Below are positions 4,390-63,731 of a stretch of 64,000 bases of DNA, piece after piece; within the stretch, counting starts at the first letter, position 1, and the number at the start of each line of letters is the position of its first letter. The notes under the pieces are model-generated. The model saw only the letters and a list, made by a program, of their open reading frames with translations. It ran no database searches and was not told the origin of the DNA. The stretch is from Bacilli bacterium (lineage in GTDB: Bacteria; Bacillota_I; Bacilli_A; RF39; UBA660). The stretch spans positions 2,535 to 66,534 of the forward strand of contig JBJEEB010000021.1 in assembly GCA_051872655.1 (NCBI GenBank). The letters are read 5' to 3'. Both the position numbers and the translations under genes were made by a program.

Positions 4390-5673
4390 TTACTTTTGGA
4401 CTATAAAAGTTGTTATAAAACCTACTAGTGAGGCTGATAAAGTTATAGGAATACTATATTTTAAGTATTCTTTTAATTTTACTTCATAGCCATTCTTTTT
4501 TAATATTCCTAGGGCTGCTATATTTGCTGATGCTCCTATTGGGGTAAAGTTACCTCCTAGTGTTGAAGCTATTATTAAGGCGTAATAAAGAAGATATGGA
4601 TTAATGTTAGTAGTAGTTGCTAAAGTAGATATAACTGGCAACATAGTGGCTACATAAGGAATATTATCAATAAAGGCTGACACAATTATTGATATTGTAA
4701 ATATCATAACATATATTAGCACCTGATTATTTCCACCAATATTTATTATGGTATTGCTAATTTTATTTATTATTCCCGTTTCTTTGATTCCACCAATAAT
4801 TATGAATAAACTAGCTAGTAGAATTATGGTGTGATAATCTATTTCTTTTATATATTTTAATGATGATTTTATATTTTTATCTTTTATAACTTTAATTATT
4901 AATCCAATTATAAAATATGAAATACATATTAATCCATTTGTTAATTCGTGTTTGTTTGGTATGAAAGATGCAGTTATTAAAGTTATGATTGTTCCTACCA
5001 GAATAATGGTTGGATAGTAACTGTTTACTTTAGTTTTTTCTGTTTTTTCTATTTTTTTATTATTTTTTCTAAATATGAATAGTAGTGTTAATGCCGATGA
5101 TATCATTCCAAATTGAGTAATAAAAAATAAACCCATTTTACCATTATGGACAAAGAAATCTAAAAAAGTCATTTTTGTTTGTCCCGCTAGAAGGATGGAT
5201 GTTGTATCTCCAACTAAAGTGGCTGCTCCTTCAATATTTGAAAATATTGCTACACATATAACGATTGGTATTGGAGAGATCTTCATTTTTTTAGCTACTA
5301 ACATAGTTATTGGAGCTACCATTAATACTGTTGCAACATTATCTACGAAGGCAGATATTATTCCCGCAAAAACTGAGAGTGCCACTATCATCCATTTGGC
5401 ATTTGGTACCTTATTTATTATGATATCTGAAAGTAGTGCTGGCATTTTTGATTCAATAAATAATGATACTGTTCCCATAGTACCAATTATCATTAATAAG
5501 ATATTGAAATCTATTTCTTTTAATACTTTATCTATGGGTAATATTCCAATTATAATAAAAATTAATGCAGTTCCTAGTGCTATATATGATTTATATTTTG
5601 GAATGGTTAGCATTAATATATATGTTATAACAAATAGAATTACCGCTAGTAATTGTGTATTTATAATTATCAC
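4390..5673 (-). CDS. ArsB/NhaD/CitMHS-superfamily polytopic permease
   Basis: ORF track, 427 aa, about 11-12 hydrophobic helices. The C-terminal motif GGNFTPIGASANI is typical of this permease superfamily. Confidence 0.55.
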   Translation of the reverse strand: MIIINTQLLAVILFVITYILMLTIPKYKSYIALGTALIFIIIGILPIDKVLKEIDFNILLMIIGTMGTVSLFIESKMPALLSDIIINKVPNAKWMIVALSVFAGIISAFVDNVATVLMVAPITMLVAKKMKISPIPIVICVAIFSNIEGAATLVGDTTSILLAGQTKMTFLDFFVHNGKMGLFFITQFGMISSALTLLFIFRKNNKKIEKTEKTKVNSYYPTIILVGTIITLITASFIPNKHELTNGLICISYFIIGLIIKVIKDKNIKSSLKYIKEIDYHTIILLASLFIIIGGIKETGIINKISNTIINIGGNNQVLIYVMIFTISIIVSAFIDNIPYVATMLPVISTLATTTNINPYLLYYALIIASTLGGNFTPIGASANIAALGILKKNGYEVKLKEYLKYSIPITLSASLVGFITTFIVQK

Positions 5674-5726
5674 CTCAATTAATTTTATTCTAAAATACTT
5701 TAAATAATTATAGCTTTAAAAATTAA

Positions 5727-6773
5727 TCATTTTTTTCTTGTTTTATTCTTTTTTGTTAAATCTTCTCTAAATATATTTATATCTTCTAATACTTTGTCTA
5801 ATGATTCTTGTTCAAATTTTATATCTATTATTTTTAGTGCATCTTCTAGTGATATTTTATTATTCATTAGTTCTTGATTAAGTTTTTCTATTTTCTCTAG
5901 GAATTTAGGATTTTTCTTATACTCTACATAATTATATATGGAAATTATTCCTACTGAATAAAATAATATTGTAAAAATAAAGTTTTTATCTTTTCTTCTT
6001 ATTATTTCTATATCAAAACTTTTTAAGGCATATTCATAATCTTTATCTTCTTTGTATAAAAATTTATAATTTTCTTGCGATACTTCTCCAAGTAAAAAGT
6101 ATAACAAAAATATTCTAACTATATAATAACCTTTTTTAATAAACGTGTGAAGATTTTTATATTCTTCAATTTTAAATGATTTTCCTTCTTCTTCGTATCC
6201 TATTTGTTCTAAATAGTCTGTATAAATAAGTTCATAAGTAAAAGCAAGTAGTTCAGTTAGAATATCATTTACTTCTCCCCTAAATAGTGGAGGTTGATTT
6301 CGGTAATGTGATATTTCATGTACCCATATTATAGAATCTGTTATTAAAGTATTATTATAAACATTTATTGCTTTATATTCTGTTACTTCTTTTCTTTTTC
6401 CATCATCTACTATAACACGTATATAATTATTATTTCCGTGTGTTAGTTCACAGATATTTGCTTTTTTCGGATAAGTTGTTTTTATTATATTAAATGTTCC
6501 ATCTTTAATTATTTCATTAAATTTAAAATCAATTCCTATTCTTTTATAGAAATCATCTATTAATTTTTCTATTTCAACAATACTTGTTCTTTGACCTTCT
6601 CTTAAGTCTGGATATTCTATGTCAAGTTCTTGCATATTGTAATATAGAAAAGCTATTAAATTATATATATTTTGCATATTGTCAAATAGTAATATATTTT
6701 CATTATAATTTTCATCATAAAATTCTTTTAAAAATGAATTTGCTGACTGTTCATTATTAATTATTTCATCCAT
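5727..6773 (-). CDS. Putative zinc metallopeptidase (HExxH, gluzincin-like), family unassigned
   Basis: ORF track, 348 aa. It contains IIWVHEISHY (HExxH), with Glu residues 14-22 aa downstream (GEV, TELL) available as a third ligand. Confidence 0.4.
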   Translation of the reverse strand: MDEIINNEQSANSFLKEFYDENYNENILLFDNMQNIYNLIAFLYYNMQELDIEYPDLREGQRTSIVEIEKLIDDFYKRIGIDFKFNEIIKDGTFNIIKTTYPKKANICELTHGNNNYIRVIVDDGKRKEVTEYKAINVYNNTLITDSIIWVHEISHYRNQPPLFRGEVNDILTELLAFTYELIYTDYLEQIGYEEEGKSFKIEEYKNLHTFIKKGYYIVRIFLLYFLLGEVSQENYKFLYKEDKDYEYALKSFDIEIIRRKDKNFIFTILFYSVGIISIYNYVEYKKNPKFLEKIEKLNQELMNNKISLEDALKIIDIKFEQESLDKVLEDINIFREDLTKKNKTRKK

Positions 6774-60443: not shown

Positions 60444-61790
60444 CTACTTTCCTAAACAGAATCTAGAGAACAATTCATCTAGCAATTCTTCTTTATACGT
60501 TGCTCCAATTACTTCTCCTAGTGTGTTCCACGCGTCTTTAAGGCCTAGTTCTACAATGTCAATTGGACTATTACTATTTATTTCTTTGATTGTATTATCT
60601 ATTATATTAAGAGATTTTTTTAGTAATGATATTGTTCTCGCATTAGATAAATATGTTAGGTCATTAGATTTAATCTCTCCTATGTTAAATAAGTCTCTTA
60701 TTTTATTTTTTACTTTATCAATGCCAATATTTTCTTTTACTGATATTTCGATATAGTCATCTAACATACTTTTATCTAATTTACTTTCTAAATCTATTTT
60801 ATTTATTACAATTATTTTCTTTTTATTTTTTAATTTATCTAATAACTCTTTTTCTTCATTTGATAGTTCTTCGTTGTTATTAAGAATGAATATAACTAAA
60901 TCTGAAGAGTCTATTATTTTTAAACTTTTTTCTACTCCTAGCATTTCTACTATGTCTTTACTTTCTCTAATACCTGCAGTATCTGTTATGTTTAATGTGA
61001 TTCCTCCAAGTATTAAAGTTCCTTCAACAATGTCTCTTGTAGTTCCAGGAATATTTGTAACTATTGCTTTTTCTTCTTCTATTAAAGAATTTAAGAGACT
61101 ACTTTTACCTACATTGGGTTTCCCAATTATGCCTACTTTTATTCCTTCTTTTATTACTTTACTATCTTCAGATTTTTTTATTATGTCTACTAGTCTAGTT
61201 CTAAACTTTTGAATATTTGGAAGTACTTTATCATTTGTCATTTCTTCAACATCTTCATATTCTGGATAATCTATATTTACTTCAATATTACTTATTATTT
61301 GAATTAAATCACTACGAAGGCTTTTTATTAAATTTGATGTTTCTCCAGTTAATGTGTTTATAGATATTTTTCTTGCTGTTTCAGATTTTGATGATATTAG
61401 GTCCATAGTAGCTTCTGCTTCAAGGAGATCTATTCTTCCATTTAGAAAGGCTCTTTTTGTAAATTCTCCTGGCTCTGCAAGTCTGGCACCATTTTCTAAT
61501 AATAACTCTAATACTTTATTAGTTGTAGCTATTCCCCCATGGCAATTTATTTCAACAATATCTTCTCTTGTAAATGTTTTAGGTGCTCTCATAATGCTTA
61601 CTAAGACTTCATCTATTTTTTCTTCTTTATCTTTTATATATCCATAATGAATAGTGTGTGATTCTGCATTAGTTAAATCTTTTGTAAATACTTTGTTTAC
61701 TATTTTTATAGCATCAATACCACTTAATCTTATTATTGATATGGCTCCTACTCCTGTAGTTGTTGATATAGCTGTGATTGTATCTTCCAT
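60444..61790 (-). CDS. mnmE: tRNA modification GTPase MnmE (TrmE)
   Basis: ORF track, 448 aa. It contains DTITAIST, GKPNVGKSSLLN, DTAGIR, and the C-terminal FCLGK. Confidence 0.95.
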   Translation of the reverse strand: MEDTITAISTTTGVGAISIIRLSGIDAIKIVNKVFTKDLTNAESHTIHYGYIKDKEEKIDEVLVSIMRAPKTFTREDIVEINCHGGIATTNKVLELLLENGARLAEPGEFTKRAFLNGRIDLLEAEATMDLISSKSETARKISINTLTGETSNLIKSLRSDLIQIISNIEVNIDYPEYEDVEEMTNDKVLPNIQKFRTRLVDIIKKSEDSKVIKEGIKVGIIGKPNVGKSSLLNSLIEEEKAIVTNIPGTTRDIVEGTLILGGITLNITDTAGIRESKDIVEMLGVEKSLKIIDSSDLVIFILNNNEELSNEEKELLDKLKNKKKIIVINKIDLESKLDKSMLDDYIEISVKENIGIDKVKNKIRDLFNIGEIKSNDLTYLSNARTISLLKKSLNIIDNTIKEINSNSPIDIVELGLKDAWNTLGEVIGATYKEELLDELFSRFCLGK

Positions 61791-61811
61791 AATACTCCTT
61801 CTTTCTCTGGT

Positions 61812-61882
61812 AGTATTTTATCACATTTTAGTAAAATATAAAAGAAAAAAGAAAGTATTTGTTATTATTTACTTTCTTTAAG
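61812..61882. repeat. Direct repeat L (copy of the jag 3' end + terminator + downstream spacer)
   Basis: The core 61833-61880, AAAATATAAAAGAAAAAAGAAAGTATTTGTTATTATTTACTTTCTTT, matches 63087-63135 with one A-run indel and one substitution. It contains the terminator hairpin AAGAAAGTA..TACTTTCTT and the codons for LKESK* that end the GNAT gene. Confidence 0.85.
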
Positions 61883-62224
61883 ATTTATAACGTATTTCAT
61901 GTTGTCTTTATTATTAGATATTAGTAGTCCATTTTGGCTTTCAATTATATTTCGTGCGGGTATATTTTCTTTTGATATTGTTATAGTTATCTCTTTATAT
62001 CCTTTGTCTTTTAACTTATCTTTTAATAATTTGAATATTATTTTTCCATAGCCATTACTTCGATATTTTTCTAGAATAGAGAATTCTACTTTATTTTCTT
62101 TAGTATCATTTATAATACCATATCCTAATATTTGATTATCTTTTTTTAATGCATATACTTCATCTTCATTGTTTACATTTAGTTCTTTTAACTCATAATT
62201 ATTTATTTTTAATAACTCAAACAT
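61865..62224 (-). CDS. Small GNAT-family N-acetyltransferase
   Basis: ORF track, 119 aa, with acetyl-CoA motif A YRSNGYGKIIF. Its start overlaps the upstream stop (TAATG). Its last 5 codons are identical to those of jag. Confidence 0.7.
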   Translation of the reverse strand: MFELLKINNYELKELNVNNEDEVYALKKDNQILGYGIINDTKENKVEFSILEKYRSNGYGKIIFKLLKDKLKDKGYKEITITISKENIPARNIIESQNGLLISNNKDNMKYVINLKESK

Positions 62225-63018
62225 TATATATTTCTTCCTTTCTTACTTTCAAATATTTCACTAAAGTTATCTTGAATAAATTTTTGGAAGCTTGGATATG
62301 CTCTACACTTTGCATCGATTATACGCCTTATAGTTTCTATAAAACTGGGATTTAATCTTTGAAAACAAGAACTAGTAAATTCTAATAATCCTATATCATT
62401 CATTATTCTTTTAGTTTTTTGTTCACTAAATACTACATTTCCAGTGTAATTATTATTATCATCATATTCCATTCTTATTTTTATATCAAAGAAATAGTCT
62501 AATAAATAGTTACAGTATGTTTTTATATAGTCTATTTTTTCAACTTTTACTGGTATTTTATATTTTTCTTTTATTGCTAATTTTTCTTCTTCACTACTAG
62601 CTTTGGATATTTCATTTAAGTAATGTAATCTAAGAATTGTATATCTATGTAGACCATTACTGCTTACTACATATTTTCCTTCATCTGCTTCAGATAATAC
62701 AATTGGTTCTCTTTTAAAACTTTGCATAAGAGCAGTTATTACTTCTTCGCTCGAATAATCTAACATTCCAATACTTCTAGTTTGATAACTCATACCTTTT
62801 CTATCAAAATAATTGCTAAAGCATGATAATATATTGGGTGATTGGCTTGAAGATATTCTCCACTTGTAGTCATAACCTAGTATATCTCCAACTGATATAT
62901 ATGTATCTTCTTTTTTACTATATAGACCATTTGTATAAACTATTACATTTATATCTTCTGTAGACTGTATTTTACTATCACTTAGTTTTCCTATTTTATC
63001 TAAATCTATATTGTGCAT
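62224..63018 (-). CDS. Hypothetical protein with ParB/Srx (DUF262-like) NTPase/nuclease-fold signature
   Basis: ORF track, 264 aa. The string REPIVLSEADEGKYVVSSNGLHRYTILRL parallels the ParB-N/DUF262 pattern (..y.viDGqQRltTl). The rest is unassigned, and the start codon is uncertain. Confidence 0.4.
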   Translation of the reverse strand: MHNIDLDKIGKLSDSKIQSTEDINVIVYTNGLYSKKEDTYISVGDILGYDYKWRISSSQSPNILSCFSNYFDRKGMSYQTRSIGMLDYSSEEVITALMQSFKREPIVLSEADEGKYVVSSNGLHRYTILRLHYLNEISKASSEEEKLAIKEKYKIPVKVEKIDYIKTYCNYLLDYFFDIKIRMEYDDNNNYTGNVVFSEQKTKRIMNDIGLLEFTSSCFQRLNPSFIETIRRIIDAKCRAYPSFQKFIQDNFSEIFESKKGRNI

Positions 63019-63065
63019 ATTTGCAAATTCAAATAATTCTTCGTTGATAATACATCATCTCCAAT

Positions 63066-63137
63066 TTAATATTATCATAATTTTAAAAAATATAAAAGAA
63101 AAAAAGAAAGTATTTATTATTATTTACTTTCTTTTAA
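63066..63137. repeat. Direct repeat R (authentic jag 3' end + terminator + spacer)
   Basis: See repeat L. Repeat R covers the jag codons LKESK* and its terminator. Confidence 0.85.
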
Positions 63138-63731
63138 TTTAATTACTACTTTTCTATTAGGTTCTTCCCCAATAGATTCTGTATAAACATATTTATCATC
63201 CGCAAGAGCTTCATGAACTATTCTTCTTTCATATGAATTCATGCTATCCATAGTTACTTCAGTTTTAGTTTTGTAAGCCTCTCTTGCTAATCTTTTAGCT
63301 AAATATTCTATGCTTCTAGCTCTCTTTTCTTTATAATTACCAACGTCAATAATGATTGATAAAGGTTCTTTTAATTTTGAGTTAACCATTTGTCTTATTA
63401 TTAATTGAAGAGCTGCAACATTCTTACCATTTTTGCCGATAAGTATAGAATTGTTTTCAGAAAATATTGTAACTGATATATTGTTATCTCTTCTTCTTAC
63501 TTCTAGATTTGATTTAGCTCCCATTAAATCTGTTATTTGATTTAGTGTATCTTTAATGAATGTTATTATTTCATTCATATTTAATACTTCAATCTTAACA
63601 TTCTTTTTTAATAAACTACTTTTATCTTCAATACTATTAACTATTAAATCTTCTTTAGATAGTTTTAGTTCTTCTAGGGCAGTGTTTATGGCTTGCTCTT
63701 CTGTTTTTCCTTCAAAATAATACTTATTCAT
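63120..63731 (-). CDS. jag: Jag/KhpB RNA-binding protein (Jag_N, KH, R3H)
   Basis: ORF track, 203 aa. It contains the KH-like string LIGKNGKNVAALQ and the R3H string SYERRIVHEAL. Its start overlaps the yidC stop (TAATG). Confidence 0.88.
   Translation of the reverse strand: MNKYYFEGKTEEQAINTALEELKLSKEDLIVNSIEDKSSLLKKNVKIEVLNMNEIITFIKDTLNQITDLMGAKSNLEVRRRDNNISVTIFSENNSILIGKNGKNVAALQLIIRQMVNSKLKEPLSIIIDVGNYKEKRARSIEYLAKRLAREAYKTKTEVTMDSMNSYERRIVHEALADDKYVYTESIGEEPNRKVVIKLKESK

Follow-up and report, generated by a model that had tools for sequence, protein, structure and literature searches.

Between the core genes jag and mnmE of an uncultured member of the Bacillota, a two-gene cassette has been found that is an accessory insertion; most of the conspecific strains sampled precisely lack it. 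The cassette lies near the end of a stretch of 64,000 nucleotides (hereafter, the window; positions 2,535 to 66,534 of contig JBJEEB010000021.1 in assembly GCA_051872655.1, Bacilli bacterium), is bracketed by direct repeats, and encodes a protein without a described family, termed X here, followed by a small acetyltransferase of the GNAT family, termed the mini-GNAT. Judged from its sequence, this cargo is a tightly linked, undescribed gene pair with the hallmarks of a conflict system. The host is a gut bacterium with 25% G+C (25.4% over the window, with no anomaly in the cassette), and the locus lies beside the gene cluster of the replication origin. As read from the open reading frames (ORFs) and Pfam matches, the order of genes on the minus strand is yidC, jag, X, mini-GNAT, mnmE, mnmG and rsmG. 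The insertion of two genes between jag and mnmE, and the overlap of the X stop and the mini-GNAT start by one base (TAATG, 62226-62222), had been recognized in a first-pass annotation of the window and were both present. With this overlap, the two genes appear to be translationally coupled.

The accessory nature of the cassette is established by the coexistence of occupied and empty alleles. In at least eight places from different samples (L044-L051), a spacer of only 74 nt separates mnmE from a jag gene whose product is 100% identical to that of the window, and alignment revealed these empty sites to comprise the end of jag, one copy of the repeat, and mnmE. Both flanks of the empty-site contigs matched the window with 98.2-99.0% nucleotide identity by BLAST. 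One such contig was assembled with k=141, a value exceeding the length of the repeat, and the empty allele is therefore not a collapse artefact. Neither is the occupied arrangement an artefact of assembly: it was recovered from three further samples (L061-L063), with X being 99% identical, and from a sister species, species A (Jag, MnmE and MnmG 90, 91 and 93% identical, respectively), on contigs of 44-80 kb (L001, L019). The occupied alleles of species A (L001-L004, L019) have the same cassette boundaries with their own version of the repeat, and its empty alleles (L056, L058, L059) have one copy. Both the conspecific strains and the sister species thus have empty sites in which the repeat is single, as anticipated by the first-pass annotation, and these sites rule out the possibility that the pair is an ancestral core arrangement.

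The duplicated segment, taken as the overlap of the two flank BLAST alignments against the empty-site strains, is 69 nt long, and the insert amounts to 1,255 bp. Direct repeats had been proposed earlier at 61812-61882 and 63066-63137; their existence stands, with bounds that were slightly off (Table 1). A core of 35 nt, AAAGAAAGTAAATAATAAYAAATACTTTCTTTTTT, occurs in exactly two copies in the 64 kb, at 61845-61879 and 63100-63134 (0 in dinucleotide shuffles), which rules out that the repeat is a common terminator. Over a core of approximately 50 nt, the copies differ by one substitution and one indel in a T/A-run, again as first described. Each copy is predicted to fold into an A/U-rich hairpin of 10-11 bp followed by a U-run (-7.3 to -8.2 kcal/mol; z approximately -1.85), with the stem arms located within 63102-63135 of copy R and within 61848-61879 of copy L. 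This hairpin is too weak to be picked up by a terminator scan based on G+C, and a scan of 61500-63500 with Rfam returned no RNA family. Copy L also holds a promoter-like site for mnmE (TTTATA-16-TAAAAT with a TG, 61842-61815). The last five codons of jag plus its stop fall within copy R and the last mini-GNAT codons within copy L; the ORF translations of Jag and the mini-GNAT share the terminal residues LKESK before the stop, as had been noted.

Copy L is identical to the single copy of the empty-site strains. Copy R differs from the empty-site sequence by a C>T substitution and one extra T in the core, and it then diverges into the upstream region of X itself. In both species, the two copies bear the hairpin loop of their own host (window, TAAYAAA; species A, GTGTAAAA). 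Given this species-matching of the loop in both copies, the repeat is the host's own terminator-promoter segment, the copies of which have been either homogenised or regenerated by recombination. With this host segment being duplicated, the cassette is supplied with the terminator and promoter region in copy, and mnmE keeps its own.

Table 1. Features of the occupied jag-mnmE locus (positions in the window)
Feature	Position	Strand	Remarks
jag (Jag/EloR/KhpB), upstream core gene	63120..63731	-	Pfam Jag_N, KH, R3H (2.3e-19)
Repeat copy R, ~70 nt	63072..63141	-	jag end, hairpin, U-run, -10-like TGATAATAT upstream of X
X, founding copy of undescribed family	62224..63051 from likely AUU start; ATG ORF 62224-63018	-	275 aa / 264 aa
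Mini-GNAT acetyltransferase, 119 aa	61865..62224	-	Pfam Acetyltransf_1, 34.9 bits (cut-off 20.7)
Repeat copy L, 69 nt	61819..61887	-	GNAT end, hairpin, U-run, mnmE promoter-like site
mnmE, downstream core gene	60444..61790	-	ORF and Pfam

A protein search with the window Jag returned many near-identical copies, and a protein 100% identical to it carries the annotation Jag/EloR. Elsewhere in the window, the Pfam summary of 54 other ORFs (1-57775) listed one abortive-infection-like Abi_2, SpoIIR, AgrB and a second HTH_ParB, with the remainder being mostly housekeeping families.

The two genes of the cassette travel together. Directly downstream of X, a cognate mini-GNAT was found at 30 of the 31 genome loci that could be assessed, and at 15 of 17 additional loci from metagenomes in which the sequence extended far enough downstream; the co-occurrence of the two genes outside the window had been posed as a check on the first-pass annotation, and it held. 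Measured from the X stop to the GNAT start, the two genes are spaced by about -58 to +2 nt. The downstream ORFs measured 108-138 aa when called crudely from the farthest start codon upstream, and the true products are of approximately 105-125 aa. X and the mini-GNAT are thus a fixed unit across many lineages and unrelated genomic positions. Fusion of the two was not observed: a hidden Markov model of the mini-GNAT matched none of 174 X-family proteins, and the motifs resembling a GNAT in one member (P0136), considered as a possible Rosetta stone fusion, proved to be part of an unrelated Acetyltransf_3 domain that lies a long way from X. The position between jag and mnmE was seen only in two close relatives of the window species. 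Elsewhere, the pair resides among housekeeping genes, including those for tRNA synthetases, DEAD helicases, rpmF, SSB, RNA polymerase subunits and MutS, and these neighbours rule out the location in defence islands that had been raised as a possibility. At one locus (L007, 4827-5657; the genome with P0017), a second ORF of 276 aa without a Pfam match lies just upstream of the X-mini-GNAT pair; no similarity to the window X was detected by tblastn.

X itself belongs to a sizeable family. An indexed search yielded 33 relatives, all unnamed. With an exhaustive profile search, the family grew to at least 292 clusters (50% identity), among which 186 had E-values lower than 1e-30. Among species-representative genomes, it was confined to uncultured gut metagenome-assembled genomes labelled Bacilli, Clostridia or Tenericutes. 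X gave no usable match in Pfam, NCBIfam, PHROGs or PADLOC and could be placed in no characterised housekeeping family. The invariant residues of the family (numbered here from the ATG, with NGLHRY at 121-126) are G48, Y78, R81, S82, S100, G122-L123-H124-R125, K152-Y153, K166 and Y168, and E104-P105, N121, E136 and D163 are nearly so. An AlphaFold2 (AF2) model of X was obtained with a pLDDT of 89.5 and a pTM of 0.85. With its invariant polar residues, this confident model and an intact gene in three other samples, X looks like a live enzyme, and its protein family is undescribed.

The fold of this enzyme is probably, with modest confidence, built around a very divergent core of the ParB/Srx type, as suggested by sequence motifs and the predicted structure. 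The pattern SF..EPI.V...GKY.I..NGLHRY..L.....KY.IPV maps onto a strand-strand-helix-helix-strand order (E106-112, E115-120, H123-139, H143-152 and E154-162 in the AF2 model), in agreement with the ParB/Srx fold in both the order of elements and the position of the motif. In two alignments, the core elements EPI (104-106), KYVVSS (115-120), NGLHR (121-125) and KYKIPVKV (152-159) were recovered, with NGLHR (nearly) invariant. The only sequence match in the PDB was to the ParB/Srx-fold serine kinase SbnI (DGVHRYTSL), which was marginal at E 0.017 and 0.041 with two profiles over 34 residues. Foldseek searches of the PDB and BFVD returned nothing at E<=1e-3 and hence no significant match to the whole protein; among the weak matches, PadC, the N-terminal domain of pNOB8 ParB, Noc and Srx were in the top 7 from the PDB (probability 0.08-0.35), and ParB-like proteins (including those of phages) or GmrSD-N made up 7 of the top 18 from BFVD. 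Two further results speak against a ParB relationship. No ParB/Srx model of Pfam at E<=1, nor any recurrent family, was found when 84 members were scanned singly, and alignment of the X profile by hhalign with the genome's own chromosomal ParB gave a probability of 0.4%, indicating no relation. The resemblance to ParB-N/DUF262 proposed by the first-pass annotation is therefore weakly supported, by motif, order of secondary structure, the marginal SbnI match and the weak Foldseek matches, but not by the Pfam models or the profile comparison.

The N-terminus of X likely extends beyond the annotated ATG. A helix conserved in the family (IINEELFEFAN) is encoded in frame 5' of this codon (63018-63060), in a stretch containing no in-frame ATG, GTG or TTG. 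An AUU at 63051 sits 7 nt past a GGAG and is likely the start codon, which would give a protein of 275 aa; an out-of-frame ATG-ATG mini-ORF of nine codons overlaps it. The same layout is seen in this region (L020, 5955-5970) of species B, which is more distantly related (Jag 73% identical), and species A has an in-frame ATG. In the three further occupied samples (L061-L063), the upstream codons change non-synonymously, but conservatively (NEE to NKE).

The identity of the partner as a GNAT is clearer. It scores above the Pfam cut-off, has the GNAT fold and carries the acetyl-CoA motif (RSNGYG in the window), the intactness of which had been reported earlier. All 29 mini-GNAT sequences compared preserve the motif, R/Q-x-x-G-x-G, with G34, G58 and G60 being invariant, and with such conservation, cofactor binding has very probably been retained; the mini-GNAT is probably catalytic as well. 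Its AF2 model (pLDDT 83), built from an alignment of seven sequences, lacks the alpha1-alpha2 segment of the canonical fold. In GNAT enzymes, alpha1-alpha2 normally line the acceptor site. Foldseek matched the model to HP0935, PseH, Sulfolobus PAT, Rv0998 and SpeG (E 2.6e-6 to 1e-5, probability 1.0), the closest structures being protein and polyamine acetyltransferases, and no GNAT toxin of the TA (toxin-antitoxin) type was present among the top 50 structural matches. Three variants that are 84-94% identical to the window GNAT (P0296, P0297, P0298) have in-frame core deletions of 5 and 14 residues, or substitutions in the motif (YRGTGHG), and may be decaying alleles or assembly errors. A 187-aa 'GNAT' (L064, 2032-2595), in which residues 1-74 of the species A protein are joined to the C-terminus of a CysK-like, pyridoxal phosphate-dependent enzyme of higher G+C, was discarded as almost certainly the product of a chimeric contig.

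X also occurs as part of larger proteins. The whole domain was recognized within proteins of 546-2780 aa, either at the C-terminus or internally; it forms the C-terminal approximately 265 aa of P0046, P0048, P0060, P0068, P0119, P0136, P0153 and others, and it is carried C-terminally by giants of 1051, 1767 and 2780 aa. In the 1352-aa P0171, X is internal and followed by an ADP-ribosyltransferase of the Vip2/C3 type, and P0136 holds, in addition, the unrelated GNAT mentioned above. The 1051-aa P0119 has a partial mini-GNAT ORF 41 nt downstream of its gene (hmmsearch, 1e-8). Within a subfamily of 666-787 aa (P0046, P0048, P0060, P0068; L037, L039-L043, L081), X lies behind a conserved N-terminal region of approximately 420 aa that has no match in Pfam, PHROGs, NCBIfam or the PDB. 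The members of this subfamily have housekeeping neighbours and retain the downstream mini-GNAT. Such an arrangement is known from polymorphic toxins with their immunity genes and also from polyvalent effector proteins (PMC5512222).

The two genes have diverged differently. Among the window species and species A and B, identities are 71-93% for Jag, MnmE and MnmG; these proteins, together with the mini-GNAT (54-71%), follow the species tree. X, however, is equidistant among the three, with identities of 53, 53 and 50%. Within the window species, X is intact, with six synonymous and four non-synonymous changes relative to L061 and six and three, respectively, relative to L062; the corresponding comparison of mnmE gave 18 synonymous and three non-synonymous changes. 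The divergence pattern of X suggests an evolution of the conflict type.

Considered together, these features point to X and the mini-GNAT as a putative conflict module resembling toxin-immunity or TA systems, a reading to which a little less than an even chance is given. X, with an NTP (nucleoside triphosphate)-binding core of the ParB/Srx type, would be the effector and could act as an NTP-dependent nuclease, an NTPase or a phosphotransferase. The mini-GNAT would serve as its cognate neutraliser, acetylating X, its product or its target rather than acting through binding alone; that neutralisation would be enzymatic is probable because the acetyl-CoA site is invariant. Such a module would explain the patchy distribution, the rapid divergence and the presence or absence at the level of strains. 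The role of X as the effector gains some support from giant, toxin-like proteins that carry it as a terminal module, with a mini-GNAT next to one of them. A number of findings weigh against this interpretation. X is without a downstream GNAT at L010, in the most divergent clade, and no mini-GNAT match was found downstream of X at L075 and L076, which is unexpected for an unneutralised toxin. Neither protein matched a PADLOC model, and no integrase, phage, secretion or defence genes were seen near the X-mini-GNAT loci. X was absent from phage and plasmid collections searched with tblastn and from a scan of IMG/VR, and an origin from phages or plasmids is accordingly not supported. The giants constitute a small minority, approximately 85% of the listed members being stand-alone, and they have no recognisable trafficking or secretion domain (Pfam, NCBIfam, PHROG, PDB) and no genes for a type VII or other secretion system nearby. 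Finally, the survey of polymorphic toxins lists no GNAT as an immunity protein (PMC3482391).

The main rival to a conflict module, possible if on balance unlikely, holds that X and the mini-GNAT together form an NTP-gated acetyltransferase of two subunits, in which X would be the NTP-binding, regulatory or substrate-recruiting subunit and complete the truncated acceptor site of its partner. The enzyme would then acetylate a protein, nucleic acid, small molecule or antibiotic, and the cassette would be an accessory pair for fitness or resistance. The loss of alpha1-alpha2 from a GNAT that has kept its acetyl-CoA motif throughout accords with this proposal, as do the protein and polyamine acetyltransferases (and not TA toxins) as its nearest structures, and the fixed gene order and translational coupling would suit a stoichiometric complex. 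Housekeeping neighbours and the lack of matches to defence libraries are likewise in keeping with it, the pair is also retained in giant multi-enzyme proteins with other modifying domains, and there is precedent in the fusion of ParB-CTPase folds to acetyltransferases, one of which binds GTP specifically (PMC12704722). However, X fuses freely to other domains and yet never to the mini-GNAT in the 174 proteins, it diverges far faster than the GNAT and the flanking genes, and a few X genes have no GNAT at all. Presence or absence within a species, together with precise loss, also better suits a dispensable, selfish or conflict gene, although a resistance gene would fit as well.

The cassette encodes X and the mini-GNAT only; the first-pass annotation had observed that no integrase or transposase is present, and this was borne out by the two ORFs. 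With no recombinase in the cassette, the simplest and most economical account would be recombination at the duplicated host segment, independent of any such enzyme. The cassette would be lost when the two repeat copies recombine or undergo slippage, and gained through either homologous exchange via the flanking core genes or a Campbell-type re-entry of an excised circle. The family sequences normally end in ...Y-V-I-P-L-K, and the ...YVINLKESK of the window shares its ESK tail with Jag, which places the right junction of the cassette, as read from these ends, in the last GNAT codons. Since every empty site has the L-type core, the empty allele is suggested to be the older in this species, with copy R having arrived with the cassette. 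Two observations count against mobility of this kind: to produce the L-type core seen in all empty sites by deletion from the window allele, the crossover would need to fall in the leftmost 18 nt, and no repeat flanks the occupied jag-mnmE locus of species B, where the order is jag, an MscS-like gene, X, GNAT and mnmE.

The first-pass annotation had seen in the repeats the footprint of either site-specific integration or a recombination-mediated cassette capture, and a miniature integrative element could be envisaged whose repeat of approximately 70 nt, lying at the 3' end of jag, serves as the att site for an integrase in trans, in the manner of islands inserted at the 3' ends of tRNA or tmRNA genes. 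This is now improbable. Repeats that duplicate the 3' end of a gene, precise empty sites with one copy, boundaries that are the same in two species, and other inserts or junctions at the same point (L057, L062, L063) would all be expected of such an element. On the other hand, neither the cassette nor the 25 commonest Pfam families of the other 54 window ORFs include an integrase or recombinase, and species B has the pair at the same locus without the repeat. Approximately 25 other insertion contexts also lack comparable flanking repeats, a few being weakly similar (z 3.5-6.2 compared to approximately 17-22 for the window and species A), and the repeat is a terminator-promoter segment that varies in step with its host, which fits homologous recombination. 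Bringing the preferred views together, X would be an unrecognised, NTP-dependent toxin of the ParB/Srx fold, deployed either free or as the warhead of giant effectors and neutralised by a truncated, acetylating GNAT, with its spread and loss proceeding without a recombinase at a duplicated host segment; that all of these parts hold at once is doubtful.

The spacer between jag and mnmE is a recurrent insertion hotspot with several alternative contents, as the X-mini-GNAT pair, the MscS-like gene, a third allele of species A and a variant junction all occur there. The gene for the MscS-like channel (285-287 aa) was located in the gap at L052-L055 (4665-5522), L020 (approximately 5050-5913) and L014 (4038-4901), and in CAG:321-like genomes it is the only gene between jag and mnmE. 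The third allele, on L057 (3613-3757; nine further contigs are similar), diverges from both the empty and occupied alleles a few bases past the jag stop; its hairpin is a different one, a convergent gene apparently ends there, and the contig stops 145 nt after jag. In two of the conspecific occupied contigs (L062, 1-24; L063, 1-30), GTCACTATGTCTTGACAAAAATCA stands in place of the jag end and the left arm of the hairpin, being joined at the loop, and the repeat core is of the empty-site type (C, six-T). Searches of the window, the compared loci and JGI metagenomes did not recover this alternative left junction.

X represents a family of the gut Bacillota that Pfam, NCBIfam, PHROGs and PADLOC do not contain, and no description of its obligate partnership with a truncated, probably catalytic GNAT was found in the literature searched. 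Were the pair a conflict module, a ParB-like effector with an acetyltransferase antidote would be added to the repertoire of TA and toxin-immunity systems, and a module that uncultured gut bacteria carry on giant toxin-like proteins would be given a function. Were it instead a two-subunit, NTP-gated acetyltransferase, it would constitute the split counterpart of the known fusions between ParB folds and acetyltransferases. In either case, the locus offers a natural test case for the recombinase-free gain and loss of a cassette between core genes, with occupied and empty alleles existing within one species.

Of the systems already described, the type II TA modules that pair a GNAT with a ribbon-helix-helix (RHH) protein (TacAT, AtaRT, KacAT, ItaRT) are organized similarly, as overlapping two-gene operons with the GNAT as the second gene. 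A reversed assignment, in which the mini-GNAT is a toxin acetylating, for example, aminoacyl-tRNA in the manner of TacT, AtaT and ItaT, and X is the antitoxin, would agree with this order and with the intact acetyl-CoA motif, but it is very improbable: X is a protein of 264-275 aa with enzyme-like invariant residues and no RHH/DUF1778 match instead of an RHH/DUF1778 protein of approximately 90 aa, the 119-aa mini-GNAT lacks alpha1-alpha2, is some 45 residues shorter than the toxins of approximately 160-175 aa and shows no structural proximity to them in its top 50 matches, X and not the GNAT is attached to the giant toxin-like proteins, and GNAT variants bear in-frame deletions while X persists.

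With the ParB/Srx enzymes, especially the free serine kinases SbnI/SerK, X has in common the strand EPI.V, the strand KY.I and a helix-capping G-x-H-R. The acidic residue preceding this motif (Asp in SbnI, Glu in ParB) is Asn in X, which alone has an N-terminal helix and a C-terminal alpha/beta domain of approximately 100 aa, and which has neither a helix-turn-helix nor a ParA partner. ParB-fold domains are also found in polyvalent proteins, where those of the DdrB-like type have a D/N at the strand end and an extra helix bearing a Tyr (PMC5512222); N121 and Y153 of X resemble these features by description, and they offer a lead only. Comparable in composition are the fusions of a ParB-CTPase fold to acetyltransferase domains (PNAS 2025, PMC12704722), which likewise link a ParB-type nucleotide-binding module to an acetyltransferase. 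In contrast to these, X and its partner are always separate genes, X is not recognised by PF02195, and the acetyltransferase is a truncated GNAT of 105-125 aa.

ParB-fold toxin domains, Tox-ParB and Tox-ParBL1, are known from polymorphic toxins (Zhang et al., 2012; PMC3482391). As in those systems, the ParB-like domain occurs both as the C-terminal part of very long, multidomain proteins and in free-standing cassettes, a small gene lies directly downstream, and divergence is rapid with presence varying among strains. A trafficking domain or linked secretion genes were not found, however: the X proteins showed no RHS, LXG, WXG or other such domains, most are stand-alone and cytoplasmic, and the partner is a probably catalytic GNAT and not one of the listed Imm families (PMC3482391). 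The analogy is thus incomplete, as the giants have no recognisable secretion or trafficking domain and are a small minority of the family. For an antidote that acts enzymatically, there are precedents in the type VII TA system, wherein MntA AMPylates HepT (PMC7641770), and in the GNAT MccE, which confers self-immunity to microcin C. The acetylation of a toxin by its own antitoxin was not found described in the literature searched, and X and the mini-GNAT have no homology to HEPN/MNT or MccB/MccE; the logic proposed for them is nonetheless the same, with an adjacent enzyme chemically modifying the toxin or its product.

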